NCBI GenBank assembly: GCA_003646745.1
Contig: QMLM01000001.1
Span: forward strand, 1 to 30,486
DNA: 30,486 nt
Source: Deltaproteobacteria bacterium
Lineage (GTDB): Bacteria; Desulfobacterota; B13-G15; RBG-16-54-18
Direction of reading: 5' to 3'
In this document: positions 264-20,918 of the stretch, one piece after another
Layout: the number at the start of each line of letters is the position of its first letter
Numbering within the stretch: position 1 is the first letter of the stretch
The notes under the pieces: generated by a model
What the model saw: only the letters and a program-made list of their open reading frames with translations
Told to the model about the DNA's origin: nothing
Databases searched by the model: none
Program-made: the position numbers and the translations under genes

Positions 264-291
264 GGAATCCCTTCCTCCCTCTATCTATTTT

Positions 292-666: not shown

Positions 667-711
667 CTCTTCCTCCTTTTTAAAAGACCTCAATATAATT
701 TCAAGAACAAC

Positions 712-1218: not shown

Positions 1219-1249
1219 AGCTTCCCTCCTCTGATCAATGTATCTAAAC

Positions 1250-1825: not shown

Positions 1826-1830
1826 AAAAA

Positions 1831-2562: not shown

Positions 2563-2903
2563 CCTTGGCCATATATACCCAAGCGGTATAGTCTGCCTAC
2601 GACCTCAAAGGTCGGCAAAGAGCTACACAAAATAGGGACACCTTCCTCCTCGGCCCGCTGCAGGGTATCGGCATCGGGCTGCCTGCCATTGGCTAAGATT
2701 ATTCCCGCTAGGTCCCGCAGGGTAGCAATCGCCACGATGTTAGGATGACCCTGAATAGTCACCCAGATGTCCCCCTCCCTGCTGTTGGCCATGACGTCGC
2801 TAAGCAGATCGCTGGCATATCCTCCTCTCACCTCCCTATCTAACCCTCCTTGGGCCGCCTTTACGGTCAACTTGAGCTCTTCGACAATCCTTGTAAGTTT
2901 CAT
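2559..2903 (-). CDS. DRTGG-domain protein (HPr-kinase N-terminal-like fold)
   Basis: GGYASDLLSDVM..GDIWVT..LAGIILANGRQPD pattern. Start ATG 2903 overlaps the upstream stop (ATGA). The longer 2987 start lies inside the upstream gene. Confidence 0.8.
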   Translation of the reverse strand: MKLTRIVEELKLTVKAAQGGLDREVRGGYASDLLSDVMANSREGDIWVTIQGHPNIVAIATLRDLAGIILANGRQPDADTLQRAEEEGVPILCSSLPTFEVVGRLYRLGIYGQG

Positions 2904-4246: not shown

Positions 4247-4689
4247 CCAAACTCCCTTATCGATGAAGGTTTAATTAACATATCCACCACAGTCCCCTCC
4301 CCAACAGTGGAGGCGATATTTAATTTATCTACGTTCTTCTTTATGTTAGGCAACCCCATTCCCGCCCCAAAGCCCATCTCCCTGATCTCTGGGGAGGCGG
4401 TTGAATACCCTTCTTGCATCGCCAGCTCTATATCCTGTATCCCTGGTCCCTTGTCCTTAACGACAATCCTCAACTCCTCGGGGCTAATGGTTAAGTGCAA
4501 AACCCCCCTCTCCGCATGACATACCACGTTCATCTCTGCCTCATAAGAAGCAATGGCTACCCTTCTGACGAAATCGGGATCAAAACCTAATTCTTTCAAA
4601 ATCTCCTTGACCTTGCTCGATACCTTCCCCGCATTCCTGAAGTCCTTTCCATTTATCTCATAGTCCCACTCCAGCACCTTTTCTTCCAT
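4243..4689 (-). CDS. RsbT/RsbW-like anti-sigma-type Ser/Thr protein kinase (HATPase_c_2)
   Basis: YEAEMNV, DKGPGI..AMQEGYST, GAGMGLPNIKK and GEGT motifs. Confidence 0.85.
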   Translation of the reverse strand: MEEKVLEWDYEINGKDFRNAGKVSSKVKEILKELGFDPDFVRRVAIASYEAEMNVVCHAERGVLHLTISPEELRIVVKDKGPGIQDIELAMQEGYSTASPEIREMGFGAGMGLPNIKKNVDKLNIASTVGEGTVVDMLIKPSSIREFG

Positions 4690-4699
4690 CTATGCATAC

Positions 4700-5056
4700 T
4701 CACCAGATGGTTCCTAAGCTACCGGGCAACCCTCTCATCCCCAACCTAACACATGCCTCATACATTAACAGTTTTGTGGCCAACAGGGGTATATCTTTGC
4801 TCTTGGCCAGGCCTATGGTCTCTTGATCAGGCCTCTTTCCCCTAACAAAGGCGATGGCCTTGAGCTCTGCCAGCTCCGCTGTCCAGATCACCTGTGAGTT
4901 TACCAATCCCGTTATCAACAGTTCCCCCCCTTGGCTGCGGTTCAAGACATCACTCATCAGATCAGCAGCCCGGGCCATCTCGATCTCCATCTGGAGGTCG
5001 ACGGGCTCCCAGAGAAGTTCTGCCTCCAGTATCCCTTGGATCTCCCAAAGTTGCAT
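4700..5056 (-). CDS. DRTGG-domain protein
   Basis: AADLMSDVL..LLITGL..IAFVRGKRPD..IPLLAT pattern; paralog of 2559-2903. Confidence 0.8.
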   Translation of the reverse strand: MQLWEIQGILEAELLWEPVDLQMEIEMARAADLMSDVLNRSQGGELLITGLVNSQVIWTAELAELKAIAFVRGKRPDQETIGLAKSKDIPLLATKLLMYEACVRLGMRGLPGSLGTIW

Positions 5057-5079
5057 GAAATTAGACTACTCCAACTATT

Positions 5080-5092
5080 TTGACTCTGTCAA
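5080..5092. promoter_or_regulatory. Inverted repeat TTGAC-N3-GTCAA, also a minus-strand TTGACA -35 candidate, upstream of the regulatory cassette
   Basis: Sequence TTGACTCTGTCAA in the 103-bp gap between nuoN and the first DRTGG gene. Function inferred only. Confidence 0.3.
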
Positions 5093-5159
5093 CAAGGATG
5101 ATATGAAGCATGCCGGGGAGAGGATTGTCCTAGAACAGATGCAGATCTTCTAAACACTC

Positions 5160-6626
5160 TTACAGTAAGAACTGAACAGAACGTTGGGCCAAGGCCAAAA
5201 AGGTGGAGGGTAATATCCCAATTTGCAACACACCCCATACAGATATAATTACAGCCAAGACAGCAGATGGTGAAAAGGCACCCACCGCCAGCTCCCTCTC
5301 CGGCTCCCGGAAATACATGTAGATCAGCACCCTGAGGTAGTAATAGGCGGCCACTGCACTATTCAAGACCCCTATGACGGCAAGCCAGTAGTACCTGGCC
5401 TTCACTGCCGCGCTGAACACATAGAACTTGGCCATAAAACCGGCCATGGGGGGCACCCCTGCCAACGAAAGCATAAAGATGGACATGGAGGCCGCCAGTA
5501 GGGGGTGCTTAAATCCGACTCCTGCATAATCCGCTAGCTGGGTATTCTCTTCCCCCTTTTTCCCCAAAAGGATTACCACTGTAAAGGCCCCTATGTTCAT
5601 AAAGACATAGGCCAACAGATAAAACAGAATACTTGATTTGCCCAGCTCGTTTCCGGCCACAAAGGCCACCATGATATAACCGGCATGGGCAATACTGGAA
5701 TAGGCCAGCATCCTCTTTATGTTTGTTTGGGAAAGGGCAATGATGTTGCCCACCGTCATGGTGGCAACAGCTAGTATCCACATAATCTGCGTCCAATAGG
5801 CCTGAAGATTGGGTAAGGCATAGAAAAAGACCCTTACAAAGGCGGCAAATCCTGCAGCCTTGACCCCTGTGGCCATAAAGGCGGTAATGGAGGTTGGTGC
5901 CCCCTCATATACGTCGGGGGTCCACATATGAAAGGGCACCAGGGCTATCTTAAAACCAAACCCAATGATAAGCAGCGCAAGCCCGATGATCACTATGGGG
6001 AGGCTGCTAATCCAAGCCTGCCTTGTGAGGACCTCGCCGATCCCAGCCAGGTCAAGGGTTCCTGTGGAGGCATAGGTAAGAGCGATACCGTAGAGGAGAA
6101 ATGCCGAGGCAAAGGCCCCCAGCAAAAAATATTTAAAAGCTGCCTCCACCGATCTGGTGTCATCGCGCATGATGCCGGCCAACACATAGATGGAGATAGA
6201 CATCACCTCCAACCCCAAGAAGATGATCAGAAGATTAACCCCCGAGGCCATCAACATCATCCCCACGGTGGCAAATAACACAAGAACGTAATACTCCCCT
6301 AGATCTATCCCTTCCCTCTTGGTGTATCCCAGGGAGGCCAAAATGGTCAAAAAGGCAACGATCAAAAACATGACCTTGAAGAAGAGACAGAATGGATCCA
6401 TCGTCACCATGCCGTTGAATGCCTTAATTTCCTTGCCAATTCCTAAAAACAGTGAGAAAAAGGCTATCACTACACCCACCAGGGCGGTATAACCGAGTGG
6501 GCCTCTGCTTTGTCTGCGAACAAACACACTTAGGATCAAGACAAATAGGGCGAAGATGGTCAATACTAACTCAGGGGCGATAACCTTCAGATCTGCCGCT
6601 GAAAACTGGATTTTGAAGATCTCCAT
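5160..6626 (-). CDS. nuoN: NADH-quinone oxidoreductase subunit N
   Basis: GLEVMS, EAAFKYFLLGAFASAFLLYG, GFKIALVPFHMWTPDVYEGAP, KRMLAYSSIAH and FMAKF motifs. Confidence 0.95.
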   Translation of the reverse strand: MEIFKIQFSAADLKVIAPELVLTIFALFVLILSVFVRRQSRGPLGYTALVGVVIAFFSLFLGIGKEIKAFNGMVTMDPFCLFFKVMFLIVAFLTILASLGYTKREGIDLGEYYVLVLFATVGMMLMASGVNLLIIFLGLEVMSISIYVLAGIMRDDTRSVEAAFKYFLLGAFASAFLLYGIALTYASTGTLDLAGIGEVLTRQAWISSLPIVIIGLALLIIGFGFKIALVPFHMWTPDVYEGAPTSITAFMATGVKAAGFAAFVRVFFYALPNLQAYWTQIMWILAVATMTVGNIIALSQTNIKRMLAYSSIAHAGYIMVAFVAGNELGKSSILFYLLAYVFMNIGAFTVVILLGKKGEENTQLADYAGVGFKHPLLAASMSIFMLSLAGVPPMAGFMAKFYVFSAAVKARYYWLAVIGVLNSAVAAYYYLRVLIYMYFREPERELAVGAFSPSAVLAVIISVWGVLQIGILPSTFLALAQRSVQFLL

Positions 6627-6633
6627 CTCCTTC

Positions 6634-8214
6634 TTACTCCTTTATCAACAATTTAACCTTCGACCCCTTCACTCCTTTGACCAAAAATCCGCCTCCCTCC
6701 GGGGCCGTCACCGCAGCCTCATACCTAGCTTTGACGTCATAGAGGAAGTGTTGTACCGAGAGGTCCATCTTCTTAAAGAAGAACTTCGGGAAGATTCCCA
6801 TCCAGAAGATCATGATGATGATGGGTACCAAGGTCACAATCTCCCGGAAGTTGAGATCCTTGAGTCCTCGATTTTCCGGGTGTTTGATATCCCCAAACAT
6901 CACCCGTTGAAACATCCAAAGCATATAGGCCGCCGCCAAAATCACCCCTGTGGCCCCGAAGACCCCGTATACCGGGTTGGCCTTAAAGGTCCCCAAAAGG
7001 ATCAGAAATTCCCCCACAAAGCCGTTGGTCCCAGGCAGGGCGATGGAGGACAGCGCCACGATCATGAAGAAAGTAGCAAATATCGGCATCACCCGCGAGA
7101 GCCCGCCGAAATCGGCGATCAGCCTGGTATGTCTCCTCTCATAGATCATCCCCACGATCAAAAACAGTGCCCCCGTGCTCACCCCATGGTTGAGCATCTG
7201 ATAGATGCTCCCCTGTACCCCTTGCACGTTAAAGGCGAACATCCCCAGCATGACAAAGCCGAGGTGACTTACACTGGAAAAGGCCACCAATTTCTTAAGG
7301 TCATCTTGCATCATGGAGACCAGGGCTCCGTAGATGATCCCGATAAGTGCCAAGACCGATATCACAGGGATGGCCTTGAAGGCAGCGGCGGGGAATAAGG
7401 GAATAGCAAAACGTATGAAACCGTAAGTCCCCAGCTTCAGCAGAATTCCAGCCAGGATTACGGAGCCGGCGGTGGGGGCTTCCACATGGGCATCGGGCAA
7501 CCATGTGTGGAAGGGGAACATAGGTACCTTGATGGCAAAGGCTAGGGCAAAGGCAGCAAACATTATGTATTGCGTCTTTATGGGGAGGCTCACCTGATAG
7601 AGCTTAAGAAGGTCAAAAGTATAAACACCGGTGGCCTTCCCGTGGAGGAAGTAAAGGGCGATGATGGCCACCAACATCAACACACTCCCCGCCATAGTAT
7701 AAAGGAAGAACTTTATGGCGGCATAAATCCTCCTCGGTCCTCCCCAGACCCCGATGATGAGGTACATGGGGATCAACATGACCTCCCAGAATATATAGAA
7801 GAGAATGAGATCCAGGGCGACAAAGGCCCCGATCATACCGGTCTCCAGAAAGAGGAAGGATATCATGTATTCCTTTACACTCTTCTCGACCGCCCTCCAG
7901 GAGCTAAGGATACACAGCACGGTTAGGAAAGTGGTCAATAGAATCAACAGTAGGCTTATCCCATCAACCCCCATGTAATAGGTGACCCCCCATTCCTTAA
8001 TCCATGGGACTTTTTCCACAAACTGCATCCCGGCCTTACCCTCATCAAAATAAATAAAGAGGGGAAGAGAGATGACAAACTCGACCAGCGAGATGATGAG
8101 GGTCACCCACTTGAGGAGTTCTTCCCTCTCCCTGGGGACAAACAATAGCAGTATCGCCCCTGCAAGGGGCAGGAAGGTAATTGTTGTCAAAATGGGAAAA
8201 CCCAATTGGTTCAT
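6634..8214 (-). CDS. nuoM: NADH-quinone oxidoreductase subunit M
   Basis: [41 protein letters not shown] and GFVGEF motifs. Confidence 0.95.
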
Positions 8215-8224
8215 GGAAGACCTC

Positions 8225-10195
8225 TCACTTTATCAAGAATATGATGACCACCACTGCGCCCAACAGTATCCCTAGTGCATAACCCTGCACGTAGCCAGTC
8301 TGGATCTTGCGCAGGACCCTCCCCCACCAGAGCATGAGTCCCGCTACCAAATTTACACTTCGATCCACCACCCCATCGTCGAACTCCCGCCAGAAGAAGG
8401 TTCCTATCTTCTTGGCGCTGCTGACGAAACATGCCTCATATATCTCATCGACATAATATTTATTGAAGACGATAGTATAAAGGGTCCTAAATCTTTGGGC
8501 CAGCCTCTTCGGGACATCAGGCTTCAGAATGTAGAGGTATAGAGCAATGCTGATCCCGATCAGGGCGATGACCACAGAGACCACCATCAGGATGATCTCC
8601 CAGTTAACACTTCCTATCTCCTCCACTGCACCGGCGGCATAGGCAGACTTAATTAGGGATAAGGAGGCATGCCCAGCTCCCTCTGGAAGCCCTCCCAATA
8701 CAGGAGCGAGAAACTCATGAAAGTAATTCCTCCCTCCTAGGACATGGGGTATACCCACATAGCCGCCGATCACCGAAAGGACAGCCAAGATGATCAGCGG
8801 TACGGTCATAATAGGTGGGGACTCATGGATGTGTTTTTTTACCTCTTCCGAGGCCCGACATTGGCCCAAAAAGGTAACGAAGGTGAGCCGAAACATATAG
8901 AAGGCGGTCATCCCTGCCGCAACAGCCCCCACCAACCAGAGAAAGAGATGGCCATGAGGGCTGCTGAAGGCCTGCCAGAGAATCTCATCCTTGCTGAAAA
9001 ACCCCGAAAACCCGGGGATCCCCGCAATGGCCAAAGTGGCCATCAAGAAGGTCCAAAAGGTAATGGGGGTCTTCTTCCACAATCCCCCCATCTTTCTCAT
9101 ATCCAATTCCCCGCTGAGGGCGTGCATCACACTGCCCGCCCCCAAAAACAGAAGGCCCTTGAAGAAGGCATGGGTCATGAGGTGAAAAATCCCCGCGCTG
9201 AAGGCCCCTACCCCCACGGCAAGAAACATATACCCCAGCTGACTAATGGTAGAATATGCAAGAACCCGCTTTATGTCGAATTGCAAAATGCCCATAGAGG
9301 CGGCATAGATGGCCGTGGCAGCGCCGAAAATGGCTACCACCGCCATAGAGACCGGAGCCATGCTGTAAATGACGTGACAGCGAGCGATCATATACACTCC
9401 CGAGGTGACCATGGTGGCAGCATGGATTAAGGAGCTAACGGGGGTGGGACCCTCCATGGCATCGGGTAGCCATACATAGAGAGGGATCTGGGCGGACTTG
9501 CCGGTGGCCCCTACGAAGAGCAACAAGGTGATCATGGTCACAGTCACTGGATCGAGGAGATGGGCCTTGGCGAATACCTCGTTGAACTCCAAGGTGCCAA
9601 GGTGGGCAAAGATCAAAAACATCCCCAGCAAGAAGCCGAAGTCCCCTACCCTGTTGACTACAAAGGCCTTCTTGCCCGCATTGGCGGGGGCATCCCTCTC
9701 AAACCAAAAGCCGATCAACAAATAAGAACAAAGCCCTACCCCCTCCCAACCGACAAACATCAACAGGAAGTTGTTGGCCAAAACAAGGGTGAGCATCATG
9801 AAGACAAAGAGGTTGAGATAGGCAAAATACCTGGTAAATCCTGGATCATCGTGCATATAGCCCACAGAGTAGATATGGATGAAAAAGCTCACCCCGCTGA
9901 CCACCATGGCCATAACGATTGATAGAGGATCGATCTTGTAGCCAATTACCGTTTTGAGCCCTCCGGAGACTATCCAATCGAACAGGACTTTATCGGGTAC
10001 GGCGGCTCGGGCATCAGGGGGGAGTTTCAGCAGGCTGAAAAAGACCAAGATGGAGAAGAAGAAAGAAAGCCCCAGTACTGAACACGCCACCCAACTGACC
10101 ACCCTCTTGTCGAGGTTATACCACCTCCCAATCAGACCGTTGAAGAGAAATCCCACGGCAGGCAATAGAGGTATCAACCAAACATATTCGATCAT
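8225..10195 (-). CDS. nuoL: NADH-quinone oxidoreductase subunit L
   Basis: [49 protein letters not shown] and FSKDEIL motifs; long C-terminal region. Confidence 0.95.
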
Positions 10196-10214
10196 AGGGC
10201 GCTCCTTGCTGCCT

Positions 10215-10526
10215 TCACCATTTTAATAGATTTATCTCATCCACCTTTATAGTCCCCCGCCCCCGGTAAAGGAGGACGAAGATGGCTAAGCCCACCGCCG
10301 CCTCAGCCGCCGCCACTGTCATCACAAAAAAGACCATCAAGACCCCATCTAGGGAATCTAAATAGTGGGAGGCGGTGATCAGACTGAGGTTGACGGCACT
10401 GAGCATCATCTCAATACACATAAAGATGACGATGGCATCTCTTCTGATCAGAACTCCTACCGCCCCAATAGCAAAGATTAGGGCACTCACAATCAGGTAA
10501 CAGACTGGTGGCACATTAGGAAGCAT
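10215..10526 (-). CDS. nuoK: NADH-quinone oxidoreductase subunit K
   Basis: [11 protein letters not shown] and [12 protein letters not shown] motifs. Confidence 0.95.
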
Positions 10527-10531
10527 CTTAC

Positions 10532-11056
10532 CTACCTCTCCTTTTTGCTTAGGATCACTGCTCCAATGATCCCCACCAACAACAGGATGGAGGCCACCTC
10601 AAAGGGGAAGAGGAAGCGGGTAAATAACAGACTCGCCACCGCCTTGATATCGCCCATCTGGGCAATCTTTTCCGGTGTGAACTCCCCCTTTACCCCCGGC
10701 AATACCCTCAGGGCAATCCCATAGACAAGCTCAGCAAAAAGAATTAAGGCCACTACTAGCCCTATTACCTTAGCAGGGGAAAGACGGACCTTATAAGTCC
10801 TCCTCTCCTCCTCCACACTCAACAACATGATGACGAAGATGACCAACATCATGATGGCCCCAGCATAAATCATCACCTGGATGATGGCGATGAACTGGGA
10901 GTTAAGAAGCAAATAGAGGACAGCAATACAAAGAAAATTAAGCACCAAAAACAAAGCCGAGTGGATCGGATTGCGGCGAGTAATTACCATCACCGCAGCA
11001 AATATAGCAGTAAGAGCGGTCAAAATAAAGACGATCCAATGAAAGAGGCTCCCCAT
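10532..11056 (-). CDS. nuoJ: NADH-quinone oxidoreductase subunit J
   Basis: [21 protein letters not shown] and [17 protein letters not shown] motifs. Confidence 0.95.
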
Positions 11057-11062
11057 GATTAT

Positions 11063-11476
11063 CTACCCCTCCTTCGGTGCGTTGGCCAAAAGCCTCTCTT
11101 TGTCTAAGACGAAGTCTTCTCGACGGTAATCCACAAACTCATAGTTTTTGCCCAATTTGATGGCATTTACCGGACAGGCCTCGGCGCAGAACCCGCAGAA
11201 AATACACCTCGTGACATTTATCTCATAGGTCTCGGGGTACCTTTCCCCTGACTCCAACTCTACGGCTACCAGATGGATGCAATTAGAGGGACACACTGCC
11301 ACACAGAGTCCACATGCCACACAACGGGTATCACCTTTTTCATTTCGCTCGAAAAAATGTACTCCCCTCCACCTAGGGGCCACCTCCCGCTTCTGCTCAG
11401 GATACTGGATGGTCACCGGGCGGGAGAAGAACCTCTTTAGGGTAAGCCTCAATCCTCTCAACAGTGGGACGATCAT
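11063..11476 (-). CDS. nuoI: NADH-quinone oxidoreductase subunit I
   Basis: TIQYPE, CVACGLCVAVCP and CIFCGFCAEACP (2x[4Fe-4S]); position after nuoH. Confidence 0.95.
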   Translation of the reverse strand: MIVPLLRGLRLTLKRFFSRPVTIQYPEQKREVAPRWRGVHFFERNEKGDTRCVACGLCVAVCPSNCIHLVAVELESGERYPETYEINVTRCIFCGFCAEACPVNAIKLGKNYEFVDYRREDFVLDKERLLANAPKEG

Positions 11477-11491
11477 CGTATTACACTCCCT

Positions 11492-12487
11492 TTAAAGGAC
11501 CATGATCAAGCCGGTAAAAAATATATTGGCCAAGGTTAAAGGCAAAAGGACCTTCCAACCGAGCTTCATGATCTGGTCATACCTCAACCTAGGGAAAGTC
11601 CCCCTTTCCCAGATACAGAAGTATACAAGTACACCGGTCTTTATCACGAACCAGATCCAGGAAAGTGAAGGGGGTAAGAAAGGACCATGCCATCCCCCAA
11701 GAAATAGCGTAGTGGCAATAGCACATACCGCCACCAAATGGGCGTATTCCGCCATGAAGAAGAGGGAGAACTTCATGCTGCTGTACTCGATGTTAAAACC
11801 ACAGGCCAGCTCTGCCTCCGCCTCAGGCATATCAAAGGGAGTCCGGTTGATCTCAGCAATGGCGCAGACCAGATAAAAGATAAAGGCGAAGGGTTGATAG
11901 AGGACATTCCAATGCCCTCCAGCCTGCCTTTGAACGATCTCCCCTAAATTGAGGGTCCCCGAGATCATCAACACCCCGATCACCGAAAGGCCCAAGGCCA
12001 ACTCATAACTTATCATCTGGGCTGCCGCTCTCAGGGCCCCGATCACCCCATATTTGTTATAACCCGACCAGCCACCAAGCACAACGCCATACTCCCCTAA
12101 GGAAGCAATACCGAAGACATAAAGTAGACCGATATCTAGGTCGGCTATGGTAAGGGAGACAGTCCTGCCAAAGATCTCAATCTTATCCCCAAAGGGGATC
12201 ACGGCAAAGAGGCACAGCGCCGCCACAATACTGATCATGGGGGCGATGATAAAAATGGTTTTATCCGCCTTAGCCGGAACCACTTCTTCTTTAAAGAAGG
12301 CCTTGATCCCATCGGCGATGGGCTGAAGGAGACCAAAAGGCCCCACCCTATTGGGCCCATATCTTACCTGGATATGACCCAACACCTTTCTCTCCACAAG
12401 GGTAAGATAGGCCACCGTACCCATTAGGACGGCAAAGACCACCACCACCTTCACCACGGCCTCAATCAGAAAATAGACTAGCTCCAT
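11492..12487 (-). CDS. nuoH: NADH-quinone oxidoreductase subunit H
   Basis: ERKVLGHIQVRYGPNRVGPFGLLQPIADGIK, AAQMISYE, NRTPFDMPEAEAEL and FPRLRYDQ motifs. Confidence 0.95.
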   Translation of the reverse strand: MELVYFLIEAVVKVVVVFAVLMGTVAYLTLVERKVLGHIQVRYGPNRVGPFGLLQPIADGIKAFFKEEVVPAKADKTIFIIAPMISIVAALCLFAVIPFGDKIEIFGRTVSLTIADLDIGLLYVFGIASLGEYGVVLGGWSGYNKYGVIGALRAAAQMISYELALGLSVIGVLMISGTLNLGEIVQRQAGGHWNVLYQPFAFIFYLVCAIAEINRTPFDMPEAEAELACGFNIEYSSMKFSLFFMAEYAHLVAVCAIATTLFLGGWHGPFLPPSLSWIWFVIKTGVLVYFCIWERGTFPRLRYDQIMKLGWKVLLPLTLANIFFTGLIMVL

Positions 12488-12497
12488 CCTCTACCCC

Positions 12498-15062
12498 TCA
12501 AACCTTCTCTAACCTGGCGGGAATCCTCCCGTAAGCTGGTACTAAAGAAACAGCATCCAATTGCGGACCCACTAGTTGGGAGGCATCCACTTCATAAAAG
12601 GGGAGATAAAGGGAAAGAACACCCTTCCTCATCCCCTCGGATCTCCTTATCTCTACCTGCACCTCACCCCAGGGGGTGGTAACCTTCACCTTGTCTCCAT
12701 CCCCAATACCCATCTCCTCGGCCTGCTCGGCGCTCATCTCTAAATAAGGATAGGAGAAGACCTTTGCCAACCCCTGAGCCCTCCTCTGGGGGCCAGAGCC
12801 TGTGAGGTGATTATAAAATATGCCCTCTACGGAAAGTAAAAAGGGATAGCCCTCCTCTTGCCCCTCCTGGGTGGGTCCTACAGGGCTAAAGACCGCCTTT
12901 TCCAAAAGATTATCCCTACCCCCACCCCGCAATTGGGTATCTGAGGCCTCAAATTCCAGCCCTCCATAGAGGGGATTGACACCTCTGATCTCCTCAAAGG
13001 TCCCTGCTGGAGACTCAGCCTTCATCTCCTTGCCCATGAAGGCCGCCAGATCCGATAAAACCTCACCTTCCCACCTCAGACCATCTGGGGGCTCCAAGGC
13101 CTTGCGCAACCTCTGAACCCTTCCCTCACAATTGGTATATGTACCGTCCAACTCAGCAAAGGATAGGGCCGGTAGGACCACATGGGCCTGCTCGGCCGTC
13201 TCTGAAAAGAACATATCCTGAACTACCAACAGCTCCAGGGCCTTTAGCCCCTCTTCTACGAGAGACCTGGGAAGGGTAATCAGGGGGTTTTCCCCCAAGA
13301 TAAACAAGGCCTTTAATTCCCCCTTGGAAGCTGCCTGAAACATCTCCACTGCCGAAAGCCCCCTTCCATTTCCTGGACGATACCCCGAAAGGAGCAGGGG
13401 AGTTGCCCCCATCTCCACGGCACCTACCATATTGGCCTGAGGTCCGACAAAGTGAAAACCCCCTCCACCGGTAAGGGCCCCGGCAAGAAGCGCCAAGTTG
13501 ACCAACCCCTTCACCTGATCTACCCCGTATGGCTGCTGCCCGAAAGGAGGAGAACAGATAAAGGCGGGCCTTTTCGCCTTGGCAAGGTGCTGTGCCGCCT
13601 CTGTAAGCAGCTCCTGAGAGACGCCAATTAGCTCCTCTACATGCTCAGGCGTAAACTTCTTGGCGGCCTCCTTGAGGGCATCCAAGCCTTCTACTGCCTC
13701 CACCCCCACTGCCCAGGCCTCTGGACCTTTCTCCAATAGGAGGTGGATCAATCCATTTGCCCAGACCAACTCGTCCCCGGGTCGTAGGCAGAACCAACAA
13801 TCTGCCTCTTCGGCCAATCTGACCCGTCTGGGGTGAACCAGTATGAGGTGCGCCCCTTTTCTCCAGAGGGCCTCCCTGACCCGATTGGCGGCGATGAGAT
13901 TATCCCTGTCCAAATCCCCTCCCACTACCACTATACAGTCGGCATCGGCAACATCATCCAAAGTGCTTGGCAGATAATCCCTGCCCAAAACCTCTTTTAT
14001 GGCCAGCCGGTACGGTTCCAGACATAGCCTACCAGTAGTATCTACATTATTGGTCCCCACCACCTCCCTCATGAATTTCTGAAAGAGGTAGACTTCCTCA
14101 TTAGTGCAGCGCGGGGATATCAACCCCCCAACTGTCCCAGGGCCGCTGCTCAAGATGACTTTGTTGATCATCGCTGCAACATAAGAGAGGGCCTCCTCCC
14201 ACGGTACCTCCTTCCAGTTCCCCGCCCCCTTAATCATGGGCCTGGTAATCCTTTCCGTACCATGGAGGAAGTCATATCCAAATCTCCCCCTTACACAGAG
14301 GCTCCCCCTGTTAGCCCCCTTATCGTCCTGGCTCGTCACCCCTATTACCCGGTTCTCGAAGATATTCAGCTCGAGCTGGCAGCCCAGGGAACAGTAGTTG
14401 CAAGTGGTGAGAACCTTTTGTTGTTGCCAGGGGCGTGCCTTGATCCTGCTGACCCTCTCGGTCAAAGCCCCTACAGGGCAGACCCTGAGACATTCCCCAC
14501 AGGAGATACAGGCCGCAGGGTCCCTTATCCCCACCTCCGCCTCATATCCCTTTCCCACCAGCTCTATAGCCCACGCTCTAGCGATCTCGTGGTCGGCCCT
14601 GATGCAACGCAAACACATAACGCAACGGTCCGCCCACTGCCTGATCAGGGGAGTGGCAAACTCCCTCATTCCCTTAGAGGACCTGGTGGCCTGATACTCC
14701 TGCTGATCTATACCGAACTCGAACACCAAATTTTGCAGTTCACATGCACCAGCCGCATCACATTGAGGACAGTCTAAAGGGTGATTAAGCAAAATGAGTT
14801 TGAGGGCATCACGGCGAATGCGCTCCAGCCTCTCCGTCTGGGTGCGAACCACTATTCCATCCTGCACATAGGTAGTACAAGCGGTCATGGGCCTCTCCGC
14901 ACCTTCTATCTCCACCACACAGAGGCGACAAGAACCGATGGGGATCAACCGAGGATGATAGCAGAGGGTAGGTATATAGATCCCGTTCTCCCGCGCCACC
15001 TCCAGGATGGTTTTGTCTGACTCAGCCGTGATCTGCTTGCCATCTATGGTCAATCTAACCAT
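12498..15062 (-). CDS. NuoG/formate-dehydrogenase-alpha-like Fe-S protein resembling Geobacter SfrA (NADPH oxidoreductase alpha subunit)
   Basis: [2Fe-2S] (PTLC..GSCRLC..C), HPLDCPQCDAAGAC, CVMCLRCIRADHEI/CISCGECLRVCP and CNYCSLGC..C motifs, then a degenerate molybdopterin-oxidoreductase body. Start moved to ATG 15062 (GGAGGAG upstream). SfrA similarity is from recall, not a search. Confidence 0.75.
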   Translation of the reverse strand: MVRLTIDGKQITAESDKTILEVARENGIYIPTLCYHPRLIPIGSCRLCVVEIEGAERPMTACTTYVQDGIVVRTQTERLERIRRDALKLILLNHPLDCPQCDAAGACELQNLVFEFGIDQQEYQATRSSKGMREFATPLIRQWADRCVMCLRCIRADHEIARAWAIELVGKGYEAEVGIRDPAACISCGECLRVCPVGALTERVSRIKARPWQQQKVLTTCNYCSLGCQLELNIFENRVIGVTSQDDKGANRGSLCVRGRFGYDFLHGTERITRPMIKGAGNWKEVPWEEALSYVAAMINKVILSSGPGTVGGLISPRCTNEEVYLFQKFMREVVGTNNVDTTGRLCLEPYRLAIKEVLGRDYLPSTLDDVADADCIVVVGGDLDRDNLIAANRVREALWRKGAHLILVHPRRVRLAEEADCWFCLRPGDELVWANGLIHLLLEKGPEAWAVGVEAVEGLDALKEAAKKFTPEHVEELIGVSQELLTEAAQHLAKAKRPAFICSPPFGQQPYGVDQVKGLVNLALLAGALTGGGGFHFVGPQANMVGAVEMGATPLLLSGYRPGNGRGLSAVEMFQAASKGELKALFILGENPLITLPRSLVEEGLKALELLVVQDMFFSETAEQAHVVLPALSFAELDGTYTNCEGRVQRLRKALEPPDGLRWEGEVLSDLAAFMGKEMKAESPAGTFEEIRGVNPLYGGLEFEASDTQLRGGGRDNLLEKAVFSPVGPTQEGQEEGYPFLLSVEGIFYNHLTGSGPQRRAQGLAKVFSYPYLEMSAEQAEEMGIGDGDKVKVTTPWGEVQVEIRRSEGMRKGVLSLYLPFYEVDASQLVGPQLDAVSLVPAYGRIPARLEKV

Positions 15063-15078
15063 CGCTCCTCCCATCTTA

Positions 15079-17034
15079 CTACCCTATGGCCACCATACCG
15101 ACGCGATAACAACGCAGGCAGCGAGCAGCTTCCCGCATGGCCGTATCGACGGGAAAACCTTCCTCCACCTCCTCAAAGCTCCACTTCCTGGTGTCTGCAG
15201 GGAGGGCCTTGAGCTGTTCCCTCTTCCTGCCCGGGATGATCCCAATATGCTCCTCAGGGTCGTAGACCCCTATCTCACCCATCAACTTCTCCAGCCGCTC
15301 GTCATCGCTAGCCTCTACTTTCTCACCCCTTAGGTAAAGGTCTATCATCTCTGCAGCCAATCGACCACTACCCGCCGCCCTTACCAGGACATCAGGGCCG
15401 GTGACGCAATCTCCTGCGGAAAAGATCTCGGGTTGTGAGGTCTCCATAGTCTCATTATTTACCACCACGGTAGACCATTTGGTGGCCTGCACTCCATCCT
15501 TTTCATCCAAAAAGGATAAATCAACACGTTGGCCAATGGCCGGGATTAATATATCCGTGTCAACGACAAACTCTGAGCCCTTGATGGGAACCGGTCTACG
15601 CCTGCCCGATTCGTCCGGCTCCCCCAGTTCCATCCTAATACACTCTACCCCCACTACCTTTCCCTCCTTAGCGATAATCTTAGTGGGAGCACAGAGATAC
15701 TCAAACTTCACCCCTTCTTCTTCAGCAGCATGTATCTCCTCTTCATCGGCGGGCATCTCTCGACGGGTACGACGATAAAAGAGGTTAACGTCCTTCTTCC
15801 CTATCCGGAAGGAGCTGCGCACACAATCTATGGCAACATTACCCCCCCCTACTACCACTACCCTATCCCCATCTGGATAGGGATCTTTCCCCTTATTTAT
15901 GCTAAAAAGGTATTGTACCCCGGGAATAAAACCCTTATATCCTGCATCTTCCCCCTCCACACGCATAGGGGTGGATCCTTGGGCCCCCACCCCAATAAAG
16001 ATGGCGTCGTACTCCTTTTTCATATCGCTGATGCTTATGTCTTTTCCTACTTCGGTATTATATCTGATTTCTACCCCCAAGGAGGTGATGATATCCACCT
16101 CCCGGCGCAGGATGTGACGGGGCAGTCGGTAGTCGGGGATACCTACCGCGGCCATCCCTCCTGGTTCATCCAGCCTTTCAAAGATGGTGATCGGATAACC
16201 CTTAAGGGCTAAGTAATAGGCACAAGTAAGACCGGCTGGGCCTGCTCCAATGACCGCCACCTTTTTGTCCTTTCTGTCCTGAGGGGTGGGGATAAGGGGC
16301 TTTCTCTTTTTCTCTATCTCATAATCGGCCACAAACCTCTTTAGGTGCCTGATGTCGAGGGCCTCATCTACATTGAGCCTGCGGCAGTTGGACTCACAGG
16401 GACGAATGCATACCCTCCCTAAGGTACCTGGCAGACAGGTTCTCTCCCTGATAACCCGAAGGGAGTCGGCGAAATCTCCCTCTGCTATACACTCAATATA
16501 AGTGGGGATGTTCAAATGAGCAGGGCAGGCATTCATACAGGGGGCGGTGAGTTTAACCTTATAATTTCCTCGCGGAACCTTCTTCTTGCCCCTGATCACC
16601 TCCTCAAACTCCTCGCGAAAATACTTCAAGGCCATCAGGAGGGGGAAGGGACCAGTCTGGCCTAGATTGCACTTGGAACCCTCTAAAATGGAGTGCCCCA
16701 AAGACTCCATCAACTCCAGATCCTCCATTCTCCCCTCACCCTGCGTGATCCTGTCCAAGGTCTCGGCGATCACCTTGGTGCCAACCCTGCAGGGGAAACA
16801 TTTCCCGCAGGACTCCTTCTGTACCGCCTCCATATATGCCCGGCACATATCGACAATGCTGACATCTGTGTCGCGCACGGCAAAACCGTTCCAACCCATG
16901 AAGGCCTTTATTCGAACGCCCGGTTTGAATTCAGCGGGCAATTTTAGCCTCTCCGGCTCGGCATATTCCTGCGGGGCCTTCCCCCTGTTATCGGTCAGTT
17001 TTCCTCCCCAATAGCTAAAAACTACATCTGCCAT
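15079..17034 (-). CDS. GltD-like FAD/NAD(P)H oxidoreductase with N-terminal NuoF-type [4Fe-4S] domain, resembling Geobacter SfrB
   Basis: ESCGKCFPCRVG..C (NuoF N3-like), APCMNACP/GRVCIRPCESNCRR (GltD Fe-S), GAGPAG (FAD), GGGNVAIDC with YRRTRREMPA (NADPH-type basic motif), C-terminal EAARCLRC. N-terminus VVFSYWG..DNR..AFMGW resembles SfrB as recalled. Start at ATG 17034. Confidence 0.8.
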   Translation of the reverse strand: MADVVFSYWGGKLTDNRGKAPQEYAEPERLKLPAEFKPGVRIKAFMGWNGFAVRDTDVSIVDMCRAYMEAVQKESCGKCFPCRVGTKVIAETLDRITQGEGRMEDLELMESLGHSILEGSKCNLGQTGPFPLLMALKYFREEFEEVIRGKKKVPRGNYKVKLTAPCMNACPAHLNIPTYIECIAEGDFADSLRVIRERTCLPGTLGRVCIRPCESNCRRLNVDEALDIRHLKRFVADYEIEKKRKPLIPTPQDRKDKKVAVIGAGPAGLTCAYYLALKGYPITIFERLDEPGGMAAVGIPDYRLPRHILRREVDIITSLGVEIRYNTEVGKDISISDMKKEYDAIFIGVGAQGSTPMRVEGEDAGYKGFIPGVQYLFSINKGKDPYPDGDRVVVVGGGNVAIDCVRSSFRIGKKDVNLFYRRTRREMPADEEEIHAAEEEGVKFEYLCAPTKIIAKEGKVVGVECIRMELGEPDESGRRRPVPIKGSEFVVDTDILIPAIGQRVDLSFLDEKDGVQATKWSTVVVNNETMETSQPEIFSAGDCVTGPDVLVRAAGSGRLAAEMIDLYLRGEKVEASDDERLEKLMGEIGVYDPEEHIGIIPGRKREQLKALPADTRKWSFEEVEEGFPVDTAMREAARCLRCYRVGMVAIG

Positions 17035-17127
17035 CGTCACCTCAAATCTATATAACGTATTAAAGTCGCATACAATTCAAACGAAGATTAAATCGCTCTA
17101 CCCTTCGCCACATAATAAAAGGGCTGG

Positions 17128-18819
17128 TCATCGGTCTATCTCCCCCAGGACGATATCAATACTCCCGATGACGGCCACCACATCGGCCACCAGATGCCCT
17201 TTAATCATCTCCGGCAAGGCCGCTAAGTTCACAAAACAAGGGGGTCGAATGCGGTACCGATAAGGGTGATTGCTTCCATCGCTTACCAGATACCAGCCTA
17301 ATTCTCCCTTAGGATTTTCGATACTGGCGTAAACCTCTCCTGGAGGTGGCGATATATCCTCGGACTTGAGCTTGAAGTGACGGATCAGGGCATTGATCTC
17401 CTCCGCTACCAGTTCTTTACTGGGAGGCGTCACCTTGGGGTCATAGTAGTTGACCTCCCCATCAGGGAGCCTGTCTAGGGCCTGATGGATGATTCTGGCA
17501 GACTGCCTCATCTCCTCCAGCCGCACGAGATACCTGTCGTAGACATCTCCCTTCTCGCCGATGGGGATCTCAAAATCAAACTCCTCATAACTAGAATAAG
17601 GAAAGACCTTGCGAATGTCCCACCTGACCCCTGACCCCCTCAGCACTGGACCTGTAAGCCCCCAGTTGATGGCCTCATCCGCCGTGATGACCCCCACATC
17701 TTTGGTCCTCTTCAACCAGATGATGTTCTCAGTAAGCAGCGTCTCATATTCGTGAATGCGTCGGGGAAAATCCTCTAGGAAGGCCCTGATCCTCCCCTCA
17801 ATGCCATCGGGCAAGTCAGCGGCCAGTCCCCCTATGCGCAAAAAGCTGGGGGTGAGCCTGGCACCGGTGACGTGTTCCAGGATGTCAAGGACTGTCTCCC
17901 TTTCCCGGAAGGTGTAAAAGAGCACGGTCATGGCCCCCATGTCCAGGGCATGGGTGGCTAGCCAAAGCAGGTGCGCTGCGATCCTTTGCAGTTCGGCCAG
18001 CATCACCCTAATGTACTGGGCCCTCTTGGGCACCTCTATTCCGAGGAGTTTCTCCACGGCCAGAATATAGGCCAAGTTATTAGATATCCCGGCGGTATAG
18101 TCTAAACGGTCGGTGAGGGTAACAGCTTGTGTATAGGTCATGTTCTCAGCCAATTTCTCCACGCCTCTATGGAGGTGGCCGATGTAGGGGATGGCATCAA
18201 CGATTACCTCCCCATCTAGCTTCAACACCAAACGCAACACCCCATGGGTGGCCGGGTGCTGGGGCCCCATATTTAAGATCATATACCTTTGCCCCTCACC
18301 CGTATCTGGGAACTTCGGTATGACATCGGGGGGCTCTGCCGGCACCTCGTAATGCTCGAAGTCCTCCCCCCGCAACGGAAAGTCCTTCCTCAGGGGATGG
18401 CCCTGGTAACCCTCCCAAGTCAAGATACGGCGCAAATCACTGTGTCCCTCAAAGGGGACCCCTAACATATCGTAAACCTCCCGCTCTAACCAATTGGCCG
18501 CCTTCCAGATCGACTCCACCGTAGAGAGCGCCTCGCCCTCACTTACCGAGGCCTTGATCCTCAACCTCTTATTCCGCCTCATGGAATAGAGGTGGTACAC
18601 TACCTCGAACCTCTCCTCCCTCTGGGGATAATCGACGCCACATATATCGGTGAGGAAATCAAAGGCGAGATCGGGGTCATCACGGAGGAACTTACAGATG
18701 GGGAGGATATCTTCTCGCTTTACCTTAATGGTCATTTCACCCTGAAAGGAGTAGGTCTCCAAGATGGAGTCGGGGAATTGCTCCTTCAGCCTCTTATGGG
18801 CGACCTCCACATCCCACAT
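17128..18819 (-). CDS. nuoCD: Fused NADH-quinone oxidoreductase subunit C/D
   Basis: NuoC part (EREVYDMLG..GHPLRKDFP) fused to NuoD part (NMGPQHPATHGVLRL, DRLDY, SIDIVLGEIDR). No NiFe CxxC motifs. Confidence 0.95.
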   Translation of the reverse strand: MWDVEVAHKRLKEQFPDSILETYSFQGEMTIKVKREDILPICKFLRDDPDLAFDFLTDICGVDYPQREERFEVVYHLYSMRRNKRLRIKASVSEGEALSTVESIWKAANWLEREVYDMLGVPFEGHSDLRRILTWEGYQGHPLRKDFPLRGEDFEHYEVPAEPPDVIPKFPDTGEGQRYMILNMGPQHPATHGVLRLVLKLDGEVIVDAIPYIGHLHRGVEKLAENMTYTQAVTLTDRLDYTAGISNNLAYILAVEKLLGIEVPKRAQYIRVMLAELQRIAAHLLWLATHALDMGAMTVLFYTFRERETVLDILEHVTGARLTPSFLRIGGLAADLPDGIEGRIRAFLEDFPRRIHEYETLLTENIIWLKRTKDVGVITADEAINWGLTGPVLRGSGVRWDIRKVFPYSSYEEFDFEIPIGEKGDVYDRYLVRLEEMRQSARIIHQALDRLPDGEVNYYDPKVTPPSKELVAEEINALIRHFKLKSEDISPPPGEVYASIENPKGELGWYLVSDGSNHPYRYRIRPPCFVNLAALPEMIKGHLVADVVAVIGSIDIVLGEIDR

Positions 18820-18831
18820 ATAATCCCTCTC

Positions 18832-19347
18832 TTATCGAATCTCTTCTGGTTGGAGGGGACGAATCTCATCCTTCCTGTCCAGAAGGCTCTCACCCATGAT
18901 CTTATTCTGCAATTTTATCAAGGCCGTCAAGAGGGCCTCAGGTCTGGGGGGGCAACCTGGCACATAGACATCCACTGGGATGATCTGATCCACCCCTTGC
19001 ACCACATTATAGGTTTGAAATATTCCACCTGAAGAGGCGCAGGCCCCATAAGCGATCACCCATTTAGGCTCAGGCATCTGCTCGTAAATCCTCTTAACCA
19101 TGGGGGCCATCTTTTTGGTAACCGTGCCCGCCACGATCATAAGGTCTGCCTGTCTGGGGGAGGGGCGAAATACCTCAGCGCCAAATCTAGCAATGTCATA
19201 GGCCGCCGAACTGGTGACCATCATCTCCAGGGCGCATCAAGCCAGCCCAAAGGTCACCGGCCAAAGGGAGTTCTTTCGCGCCCAATTGACCAATTTGCTG
19301 AGAGAGGTCGTGATGATGTTATCCCCTAACTTGACCTCTATTCCCAT
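18832..19347 (-). CDS. nuoB: NADH-quinone oxidoreductase subunit B with in-frame TGA at codon 37 (19237-19239); candidate selenoprotein, 171 aa
   Basis: Manual extension upstream of the 130-aa track ORF gives [46 protein letters not shown]..., followed by [16 protein letters not shown] and PGCPPRPEA. The start ATG 19347 overlaps the end of nuoA. Confidence 0.9.
19204..19239 (-). promoter_or_regulatory. Putative bacterial SECIS hairpin directly after the nuoB UGA
   Basis: mRNA UGA-UG-CGCC-CUGG-AGA-UGA-[UGG]-UCA-CCAG-UUC-GGCG folds by hand into CGCC/GGCG, CUGG/CCAG and UGA/UCA stems, with a G-containing apical loop 16 nt after the UGA. Not computed. Confidence 0.6.
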
Positions 19348-19694
19348 TCCAGCGCTCCTTTCCTCCATACATATATAAAACCCAATAATAGAATAAAAAT
19401 GAAAATCATCATCTCCACAAAGCCAAATATCCCTAACTCCCTAAAGACCACCGCCCAAGGGTACAAAAAGACCACCTCTAGGTCAAAGACCAAAAAGAGC
19501 ATGGCGATGATGTAATACTTTATCGGAATGGCCTGATGGGTGGGGCCTAAAGAGATCATCCCACACTCATAGGGAGCAGCTTTTACCGGATGGACCCTCT
19601 TAGGCCCCAACAGATGGGAGAGGAAGACGACAAAGACGGCAAAAAATATAGACAAGGCCAATAAAAACAGAACAGGCACATACTTAATGAGCAT
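19338..19694 (-). CDS. nuoA: NADH-quinone oxidoreductase subunit A
   Basis: [28 protein letters not shown] and WRKGALEWE motifs. Confidence 0.95.
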
Positions 19695-19739
19695 CAGATC
19701 TCCCCCCCTTAAGTTATGACCTGGGCTTGACGCCTAGAT

Positions 19740-19768
19740 CTATTACAACATCGATCTAAATTTGTCAA
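19740..19768 (-). promoter_or_regulatory. Candidate sigma70 promoter of the nuo block
   Basis: Minus-strand TTGACA (19768-19763) followed after 17 nt by a weak -10 (TAATAG). Confidence 0.35.
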
Positions 19769-19937
19769 GGGGAAAATCGTAGTTTTGTGAAAATAGTAGC
19801 TATCTAAATTGACCTCCAAAAACTCCTCTAATAGTGCTATCTTTTGCCTTAAAATCTTTTGTCTATAGTGGTTGAGAGGTCGAAATTCAAGTTAGACTAA
19901 AGATTCTTTTTGAGATAAAATAGGCCATCAATCAGCT

Positions 19938-20918
19938 ATGTTAGATATGTTAGACACGATGTATCTTGGTGTTGATGTAGGTTCCATCACCACTAAAGTG
20001 GTGGCCATTGATGAGGCGGACCAGATCAGGGCCAAGGTCTATCTGCGTAACATCGGCAGGCCCCTAGAGGCGATAAAGAAAGGGCTCCGTATGATAAAGG
20101 ACCAACTCGGGGACAACCTGGAGGTTCAAGGGATAGGGACTACGGGGAGCGCCCGCCACCTAGCGGCTTACCTCTTGGGGGCAGATGTGGTGAAAAACGA
20201 GATCACCGCCCATGCCGTGGCCGTAGTCGACTTCCTCCCCGAGGTCCAAACCATTATCGAGATCGGCGGACAGGACTCCAAGATCATCATCTTACAGGAG
20301 GGGGTGGTGGTGGACTTTGCCATGAACACGGTATGTGCGGCAGGGACTGGCTCCTTTTTGGATCAACAGGCCGCCCGGTTGGGGATATCTGTGGAAGAAT
20401 TCGGTCAGTTGGCCCTAAAGGCGACAAAAAGGGTGAGGATAGCGGGCAGATGCACAGTCTTTGCCGAGACCGATATGATCCACAAACAGCAGCTGGGCTT
20501 TCAAACTGAGGAGATCATTGCCGGGCTCTGCAGCTCCCTGGTCAAGAACTATCTCAACGACGTGGCCAGAGGAAAAGATCTCCTCCCCCCATTGGTATTT
20601 CAGGGCGGCGTGGCTGCCAATCCGGGCATAAGGAAGGCATTCGAAGAGGAGCTAGGGGTGCCCTTGGTGATCCCTCCCCACTTTGAAGTCATGGGGGCCC
20701 TCGGGGCAGCGAAACTTGCCCGCCGAGCTGGTGTATCCAGTAGCAAGTTTAAAGGATTTGATATAGCTCACAGCGAATGTTTCACCCGCAGTATAGAGTG
20801 TGACGGGTGCGGGAACAATTGTGAGGTGATAGAATTGATAGTGAATGGAGAAACCATCGCCTACTGGGGTGACAGGTGCGGTAAGTTCAGCGAGGCCTTC
20901 CGCTCCAAAGAGGGATGA
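19938..20918 (+). CDS. Acyl-CoA dehydratase activase (BadF/BadG/BcrA/BcrD, HgdC-like [4Fe-4S] ATPase) with Cys-rich C-terminal tail
   Basis: GVDVGSITTK, NEITAH, EIGGQDSK, CAAGTGSFLD, RCTVFAE and GGVAAN motifs; tail CDGCGNNC..GDRC. Start uncertain (19938, 19947 or 19959). Confidence 0.85.
   Translation: MLDMLDTMYLGVDVGSITTKVVAIDEADQIRAKVYLRNIGRPLEAIKKGLRMIKDQLGDNLEVQGIGTTGSARHLAAYLLGADVVKNEITAHAVAVVDFLPEVQTIIEIGGQDSKIIILQEGVVVDFAMNTVCAAGTGSFLDQQAARLGISVEEFGQLALKATKRVRIAGRCTVFAETDMIHKQQLGFQTEEIIAGLCSSLVKNYLNDVARGKDLLPPLVFQGGVAANPGIRKAFEEELGVPLVIPPHFEVMGALGAAKLARRAGVSSSKFKGFDIAHSECFTRSIECDGCGNNCEVIELIVNGETIAYWGDRCGKFSEAFRSKEG

Follow-up and report, generated by a model that had tools for sequence, protein, structure and literature searches.

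The 30,486-nucleotide (nt) stretch of a deltaproteobacterial genome analyzed here (the window; contig QMLM01000001.1 of assembly GCA_003646745.1) contains an operon for respiratory complex I (nuo) in which the place of nuoE, nuoF and nuoG is occupied by two other genes. One encodes a flavoprotein of the SfrB/FdhB type (15079-17034, minus strand, 651 amino acids), and the other a protein resembling both NuoG and the alpha subunit of formate dehydrogenase (12498-15074, minus strand, 858 amino acids; the G-like subunit below). We consider it probable, with moderate confidence, that the operon encodes a proton-pumping NADPH:menaquinone oxidoreductase, or an enzyme working in the reverse direction, in which an SfrAB/FdhAB-type module would replace NuoE-NuoF-NuoG in a 13-protein complex I. 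Because the formate site of the module has been lost in the window (His to Leu and Arg to Gly), NADP(H) is left as its only recognizable substrate site, by this reading.

Results

Two genes in the nuoEFG slot

The two genes lie between the nuoCD fusion (17128-18819, minus strand; PF00329 and PF00346) and nuoH (11492-12487, minus strand; PF00146, E 1e-123). The G-like gene starts 4 nt downstream of the flavoprotein gene and is separated from nuoH by 10 nt. Both were assigned with Pfam and NCBIfam, and the flavoprotein also by sequence matches in the PDB, by motifs and by a tree. A sequence-only reading of this DNA had proposed the order nuoA-B-CD-flavoprotein-G-like-nuoH-N, with neither nuoE nor an FMN-type nuoF between nuoCD and nuoH. 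The coordinates of the open reading frames (ORFs) and the Pfam matches bore out this order, and in the interval from nuoCD to nuoH Pfam matched neither PF01257 (NuoE) nor PF01512 (the flavin mononucleotide (FMN) domain of NuoF). PF01512 was found neither in the flavoprotein nor anywhere else in the operon. The same reading had set the pair apart from free-standing sfrAB by its position within a nuo operon, and the gene order agrees with this.

Occurrence and family placement

Metagenomes of Deltaproteobacteria/Thermodesulfobacteriota are rich in homologs with more than 65% identity to the flavoprotein. Their annotations read 'FAD-dependent oxidoreductase', 'dihydropyrimidine dehydrogenase subunit A' or, for close homologs at JGI, 'formate dehydrogenase (NADP+) beta subunit', and one homolog with 78% identity was found in an identical operon. 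A peptide-pattern scan of public genomes gave mostly distant GltD-only proteins, and a phylum-wide search was used instead: 400 evenly sampled genomes of the phylum were surveyed, and the surroundings of 80 matches were fetched. The flavoprotein gene was located within a nuo operon or at its end in at least 57 of the 400 genomes, belonging to at least 16 GTDB families. The nuo-linked flavoproteins are 49% to 87% identical to that of the window, and the usual order among their carriers is nuoA-B-C/D-flavoprotein-G-like-H. Placement in the nuo slot is conserved across these families. The carriers include 'Candidatus Anaeroferrophillus wilburensis' and the cultured Deferrisoma camini, whose genome is complete; the survey also noted Desulfarculus baarsii and family f47 among the relatives.

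In a maximum-likelihood tree, all proteins that combine a NuoF-type N3 cluster domain with a GltD-like body (N3+GltD) fell into one clade (100/100), with the NuoF-fused forms outside. This clade also holds a protein of Geothermobacter ehrlichii, named NADPH-Fe(3+) oxidoreductase beta in UniRef, to which the flavoprotein is 49% identical; identity to free-standing relatives is 49-51%. Because of this single clade, the pair is placed by phylogeny in the family of SfrAB and of the NADP-dependent formate dehydrogenase FdhAB of Moorella. Domain order, cluster ligands, the 49-51% identity and the clade together uphold the SfrB/SfrA-like identity proposed earlier, and the tree groups the flavoprotein alongside this NADPH-Fe(3+) oxidoreductase and apart from the NuoF-fused forms.

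The flavoprotein

Residues of the flavoprotein are numbered on the 653-codon ORF with a GTG start (15079-17040). Translation probably begins at the ATG at 17034, as in the database copy and the sequence-only reading, and 2 should be subtracted for that start. The Pfam order is PF10589 NADH_4Fe-4S (residues 64-147, E 5e-28), PF14691 Fer4_20 and PF07992 Pyr_redox_2. In a PDB sequence search, residues 1-165 resembled the C-terminal third of NuoF/HoxF/HydB, and residues 164-644 matched NfnA of NfnABC (9n5u_A, E 3e-118), 9bov_A and StnC (8oh5_C), as well as NfnB (4ylf_B, E 3e-96; 5jca_L) and GltD. The N-terminal NuoF-N3-like domain described in the sequence-only reading was recovered as the PF10589 match, but the resemblance is not limited to the cluster-binding helix bundle: it extends over 165 residues, which correspond to about the last third of NuoF/HoxF. 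In domain terms, the flavoprotein is the C-terminal N3 domain of NuoF fused to a GltD/NfnB body with two GltD-type [4Fe-4S] clusters, flavin adenine dinucleotide (FAD) and a predicted NADPH site.

We aligned 31 distinct nuo-linked flavoproteins with 9 free-standing relatives. The N3 ligands C78/C81/C84/C124 and the GltD-type cluster cysteines (168, 172, 184, 211, 215 and 219) are conserved in essentially all of them and invariant in the 31 nuo-linked proteins. The FAD motif GAGPAG (263-268) and the NADPH motif GGGNVAID (398-405) are likewise conserved in essentially all aligned sequences. The YRR triplet of Y422-R423-R424-T-R426 is 100% conserved. All three motifs named in the sequence-only reading (GxGPAG, GGGNxAxD and YRR-x-R) were therefore located in this protein. 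In NfnB of T. maritima the YRR triplet binds the 2'-phosphate of NADPH, and among the related DsrL enzymes it tells NADP(H)-using from NAD(H)-using members (PMC7596348).

A further motif, VFSxWxG...DNRGK, is strongly conserved within residues 1-60 in nuo-linked and free-standing members alike. This segment lies ahead of the N3 domain, and its counterpart in NuoF/HoxF is the part that comes before the cluster-binding helices.

The G-like subunit keeps its clusters and has lost the formate site

The G-like protein matches PF13510, PF10588, PF22117, PF04879, PF00384 and PF01568. It stays below the curated cut-offs both for formate dehydrogenase alpha (TIGR01591, 447 versus 666 bits) and for NuoG (TIGR01973, 407.4 versus 470 bits). 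Its closest solved relative is FdsA, the NAD-dependent formate dehydrogenase alpha subunit from R. capsulatus (6tg9_A, E 9e-128, residues 3-831), and its best solved NuoG match is well behind (E 2e-69).

Four sets of cluster ligands are invariant in an alignment of 29 nuo-linked copies: the [2Fe-2S] cluster N1b (C38/49/52/66), the His-ligated [4Fe-4S] cluster N5 (H98/C102/105/111), N4 (C151/154/157/199) and the molybdopterin-adjacent cluster (C225/228/232/260). At first sight, half of the free-standing alpha subunits lacked His98 of N5, but this was an effect of alignment register (GDHNC instead of NHPLDC) and was discarded as evidence. The protein carries two ferredoxin-type motifs, and in 6 of the 29 copies the fourth Cys of one such [4Fe-4S] motif is replaced by Asp161 (codon 14592-14594). 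These copies belong to the window's family and to part of its sister family f2 (L091 and L092; L111 of f2 lay outside this residue check). The cluster concerned sits on the branch toward the former molybdopterin site.

Comparison with FdsA showed what happened at that site. Cys386 of FdsA corresponds to Cys351 in the window, His387 to Leu352 and Arg587 to Gly544. We take Cys386 to be the Mo ligand, and His387 and Arg587 to be the conserved catalytic His and Arg of the enzyme class. The formate dehydrogenase triad, selenocysteine (Sec) or Cys with His and Arg, is intact in 8 of the 29 copies (L124, L102, L107, L108, L109, L113, L114 and L123), with the signatures VDHCARL-[TGA or Cys]-HS and NPLRGQNNVQG; the first residue is encoded by TGA except in L108, which has Cys. 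In Deferrisoma camini (L124:5900-8572), for example, the codons CGT CTC TGA CAC AGC read R-L-U-H-S. Two copies (L106 and L125) are partly degraded, one residue being gone in each. The remaining copies, those of the window's family f1 and of sister family f2 among them, are degenerate and lack His and Arg; in f2 the Cys is also gone, with Asn at its position.

When copies with equally diverged flavoproteins are compared, intact ones share 56-74% identity in the molybdopterin domain and degenerate ones 29-49%, and conservation of the N-terminal Fe-S domain is equal between the two groups. The molybdopterin domain of the window's lineage evolves under relaxed constraint. By its residues the window's alpha subunit is not a formate dehydrogenase, and its formate site is predicted to be dead. 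The loss of His and Arg strengthens the NADPH-only reading and removes formate as a likely donor. Because the nuo-linked copies range from intact to degenerate, with a faster-changing molybdopterin domain, the nuo-linked module most likely began as a true NADP-type formate dehydrogenase, and repeated decay of its formate site left a NuoG-like electron-transfer scaffold. The relatives with an intact triad probably use formate, and their complexes may be formate-linked complex I enzymes.

The complex I core

The operon consists of 13 tightly packed minus-strand genes running from 19694 to 5160, and NuoA, B, C, D and H-N are all encoded in it. Besides nuoCD and nuoH, we identified nuoA (19338-19694; PF00507, E 3e-38), nuoB (18832-19347; 171 codons with an in-frame TGA, translated as U), nuoI (11063-11476; families of 2x[4Fe-4S] ferredoxins), nuoJ (10532-11056; PF00499), nuoK (10215-10526; PF00420), nuoL (8225-10195; PF00361 and PF00662), nuoM (6634-8214; PF00361 and PF01059) and nuoN (5160-6626; PF00361). 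The antiporter-type subunits NuoL, NuoM and NuoN gave strong Pfam matches. NuoD aligned over its full length with solved 49-kDa subunits (E 8e-136), and this alignment substantiated the earlier claim that the quinone-site His (GPQHPATHG) and Tyr (MTYTQA) are retained. No NfnA-like subunit was found among the 13 operon genes scanned, and the genes other than the pair all match Nuo subunit families. A promoter and terminator scan of 4200-20000 gave fewer promoter-like sites than shuffled sequences and no convincing internal terminator. Directly after nuoN lies a 118-amino-acid ORF (4700-5056, minus strand) with no Pfam match.

A probable selenocysteine in NuoB

The TGA codon in nuoB (19237-19239), which the sequence-only reading had not mentioned, replaces the first Cys codon of the tandem-Cys N2 motif (FGLA-U-CALEMM versus FGLACCALEMM in L006). 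This TGA recurs in at least 17 of the fetched loci, which belong to at least 6 families, and sister genomes have TGC or TGT at this position (examples of TGA or TGY are L088, L091-L093, L102, L107, L134-L136, L150, L156, L162 and L164). A hairpin resembling a selenocysteine insertion sequence, GGUCACC-AGUUC-GGCGGCC with a GU-containing loop (19201-19219, minus strand), begins 18 nt after the UGA. The hairpin was predicted in every unique TGA copy that was folded (local 33 nt), with compensatory changes in L102 and L107; in Cys orthologs with the same peptide it was not predicted or the fold was weaker. The genome encodes SelA, SelB and tRNA-Sec. Because the TGA recurs, the hairpin follows it and this machinery is present, NuoB is probably a selenoprotein with Sec as a ligand of cluster N2. 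A long-range hairpin that RNAalifold suggested within the 70 nt following the TGA was rejected as too far from the UGA. We found no description of a Sec-containing NuoB in the literature, of which our coverage was incomplete, and an earlier mention is possible.

Other NuoE- and NuoF-like genes

The single NuoD of the assembly is the one in this operon, and no canonical NuoEFG was found in the assembly, which is 86.5% complete. Its only PF01512 match lies on a 2.9-kb contig (C247) beside a NuoE-like gene. PF01257 was matched on this contig and at 712-1266 and 21-251 of the window, downstream of nuoN.

The left end of the window holds a cluster of minus-strand genes: a protein resembling the ATPase of histidine kinases (HATPase-like, 4243-4689), an [FeFe]-hydrogenase-like protein that carries additional Fe-S domains (2900-4246), a DRTGG protein (2559-2987), a PHP protein (1831-2562), a HATPase protein (1250-1825), the NuoE-like protein (712-1266; PF01257), a 133-amino-acid ORF (292-693) and the first 87 codons (3-263) of a NuoF-like gene that runs off the contig. 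In relatives (G013 and G126) the last of these genes encodes a 1022-amino-acid NuoF-GltD fusion, and the last ~640 residues of this fusion are homologous to the whole nuo-linked flavoprotein. The cluster at 3-4689 is syntenic with the nuo operon across the family and looks like a separate, regulated soluble system of the hydrogenase or transhydrogenase type. A search of five genomes that have the arrangement yielded no canonical-size NuoF; their NuoF-like ORFs have 546-1022 codons.

In Deferrisoma camini, an rnf cluster (RnfA/E, D, C and B-like; L124:13713-19007) lies directly upstream of nuoA on the same strand, which makes two redox complexes that pump ions neighbors. A PF01512 match 3 kb upstream of this nuoA, considered as a hidden nuoF, is the RnfC of the cluster.

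Discussion

Proposed electron path

In the enzyme that we propose, NADPH would reduce the FAD held by the flavoprotein's GltD-like body through hydride transfer, and single electrons would pass from there via two [4Fe-4S] clusters to the N3-type cluster of the NuoF-derived N-terminal domain. This domain would dock onto the N-terminal Fe-S domain of the G-like subunit as NuoF does on NuoG. Electrons would then flow through the G-like chain to NuoI, next to N2 of NuoB and finally to menaquinone in the NuoD/NuoH site, and menaquinone reduction would drive proton pumping by NuoL, NuoM and NuoN. The reverse mode, in which proton-motive force and menaquinol would yield NADPH, is an equally possible direction. 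From the genes we infer this direction or its reverse, as well as the physical attachment of the module, the electron path and the specificity for NADPH in vivo.

Comparison with known systems

SfrAB of Geobacter sulfurreducens, for which Geothermobacter ehrlichii sequences served as proxy, has the same two-gene design. Its beta subunit joins a NuoF-type [4Fe-4S] domain to a GltD-like FAD/NADPH body, and its alpha subunit joins NuoG-like clusters to a molybdopterin-type domain. The formate dehydrogenase triad of the Geothermobacter SfrA-like protein is degenerate, as in the window. However, SfrAB is free-standing and soluble, whereas the window pair is encoded between nuoCD and nuoH of the sole complex I operon. 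The NADP-dependent formate dehydrogenase of Moorella thermoacetica belongs to the same protein family; its genes are annotated sfrB2 (beta), sfrA2 and fdhF3 (PMC13040438). Compared with this enzyme, the nuo-linked alpha subunit of D. camini keeps Sec-His and Arg, whereas that of the window has lost His and Arg and sits in nuo.

With canonical NuoEFG the window module shares the operon position, an N3-type domain, NuoG-type clusters and a degenerate molybdopterin-like C-terminal domain. It differs in lacking NuoE and the FMN/NADH domain, and its hydride acceptor is predicted to be FAD in a GltD fold with YRR. Among solved structures, the best sequence matches of the GltD part are StnABC and NfnABC (8oh5, 9n5u). 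In StnABC, electrons from a GltD-like NADPH/FAD domain enter a NuoG-like Fe-S chain along a linear, non-bifurcating route, and the FdhF-like domain is catalytically inactive (PMC10482914). These are soluble complexes in which GltD is fused into the NuoG-like protein and full NuoE/NuoF-like bifurcating subunits are present; in the window, by contrast, GltD is fused only to the N3 domain of NuoF, the G-like gene is separate and the proposed partner is a membrane complex. In NfnAB, NfnB pairs with NfnA (FAD and [2Fe-2S]), whereas the window operon has no NfnA-like gene and the N3 domain is foreign to NfnB.

Exchanged input modules on a conserved Q/P core have been described for Fpo with FpoF (F420H2) and for cyanobacterial NDH-1 (ferredoxin), and the 12-subunit complex of Campylobacter/Helicobacter has a NuoG-like subunit and no NuoEF (PMC3144371; PMC12361115). 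Since these cases are described, a complex I with an exchanged input module is an already known principle, which the window shares while its donor module is different.

Alternative explanations

The pair could instead be a soluble SfrAB-like NADPH oxidoreductase that is merely co-transcribed with a headless, ferredoxin-fed complex of 11 subunits, so that the NADPH, ferredoxin and quinone pools would be regulated together. In the phylum, free-standing homologs of the two genes are indeed common and interleave with nuo-linked ones in the tree. The characterized SfrAB of Geobacter and NADP-dependent formate dehydrogenase of Moorella are soluble, the latter having been purified as alpha2beta2 (PMC13040438), and headless complex I enzymes are well known (PMC3144371). 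However, the genes occupy the nuoEFG slot across at least 16 families and not arbitrary sites, the G-like subunit keeps the complete N-terminal cluster set of NuoG, and electron transfer from NADPH to ferredoxin would be uphill without bifurcation. Moreover, as the formate site is dead, such a soluble enzyme would have no evident second substrate. We regard this explanation as unlikely. To the idea that the GltD-like FAD bifurcates or confurcates as in NfnB, coupling NADPH, ferredoxin and quinone (e.g. splitting NADPH to menaquinone and ferredoxin, or the reverse), we give little weight. Bifurcating NfnB (4ylf_B and 5jca_L) is a close relative of the GltD part among solved characterized enzymes, and the two NfnB-type N-terminal clusters are conserved, but the same fold in StnC is non-bifurcating (PMC10482914) and the operon encodes no second exit branch, that is, neither an NfnA-like subunit nor an extra ferredoxin-binding domain. 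An Arg contacting N5 of FAD was considered as a marker of bifurcation and dropped: it is also present in non-bifurcating StnC, and the Arg-to-N5 difference is geometric and not readable from sequence (PMC10482914).

It is very unlikely that the molybdopterin domain still acts on formate or another small substrate through Cys351, making substrate:quinone the input and NADPH a side branch. The alignment of Cys351 with the FdsA ligand, the invariant cofactor-adjacent cluster and the 8 relatives with a full triad fit such residual catalysis. They are opposed by Leu and Gly at the positions whose catalytic roles we assumed from FdsA, by Asn in place of Cys in sister family f2, by a domain evolving about twice as fast as in intact copies, and by Asp in place of Cys at one ligand position of the cluster that branches toward that site. 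Also very unlikely, in our judgment, is that NADH is still the donor, with NuoE/NuoF-like proteins from elsewhere docking on the G-like subunit and the flavoprotein as an accessory. Candidates would be the NuoE-like and NuoF-like pair on contig C247 and the NuoE-like gene and NuoF-like gene start at the left end of the window. Yet the N3 domain of the flavoprotein, homologous to the NuoG-contacting part of NuoF, would fill the docking site; the NuoF-like ORFs of relatives have sizes typical of hydrogenase, formate dehydrogenase or transhydrogenase subunits, none being of canonical NuoF size; and the match near the D. camini operon is RnfC.

Several observations speak against the NADPH:menaquinone oxidoreductase that we favor. 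The soluble homologs, SfrAB and Moorella FdhAB, work without a membrane partner, and co-transcription is no guarantee of attachment. The tree mixes nuo-linked with free forms, and its well-supported branches force at least 4 context switches; the module therefore has no obligatory tie to complex I. Gene order varies as well, since the pair follows nuoN in part of f2 (L109, L114 and L167), and in part of f13 (L094, L139, L145, L149 and L157) the G-like gene is upstream of nuoA, with the flavoprotein gene still between nuoCD and nuoH; some f13 genomes have two G-like genes. Cys351 is retained in the window's family, and some chemistry at the former Mo/W site is therefore possible. Finally, NuoE/NuoF-like genes are present elsewhere in the genome, which is an incomplete metagenome-assembled genome (1.78 Mb in 278 contigs).

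Significance

We found no description of a GltD/SfrB-like or FdhAB-type module in nuo operons in the literature, of which our coverage was incomplete, and a prior description is possible. Generic annotations such as 'FAD-dependent oxidoreductase' may lead metabolic reconstructions to score these operons as 'nuo lacking EFG'. The arrangement is present in about 1/7 of the sampled genomes of the phylum, and since the cultured D. camini carries it, biochemistry is feasible.

As a tentative extension, which we rate as possible and a little short of probable, Thermodesulfobacteriota may harbor a widespread complex I lineage with an FdhAB-type NADP-dependent formate dehydrogenase as input module. 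Its stages would lead from a Sec-containing, probably formate-oxidizing alpha subunit (e.g. in Deferrisoma camini) to the inactivated NuoG-like scaffold of the window, often with a Sec ligand on N2. The complexes would be proton-pumping formate/NADPH:menaquinone oxidoreductases, or machines driven by proton-motive force that reduce NADP+ or CO2. It is a long-standing idea that NuoG descended from a formate-dehydrogenase-like enzyme. With alpha subunits that grade from intact to degenerate formate dehydrogenases at a single operon position, this idea becomes directly testable, and the staged lineage, if true, would be a living replay of the origin of NuoG and the N-module.

Complex I is normally tied to NADH, and sulfate reducers, iron reducers and syntrophs live near the thermodynamic limit. 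If the proposed function is true, a complex I wired to NADPH, and in relatives to formate, would revise how the NADPH pool, menaquinone and proton-motive force are coupled in these organisms, and it would offer a route to NADPH supply driven by proton-motive force.

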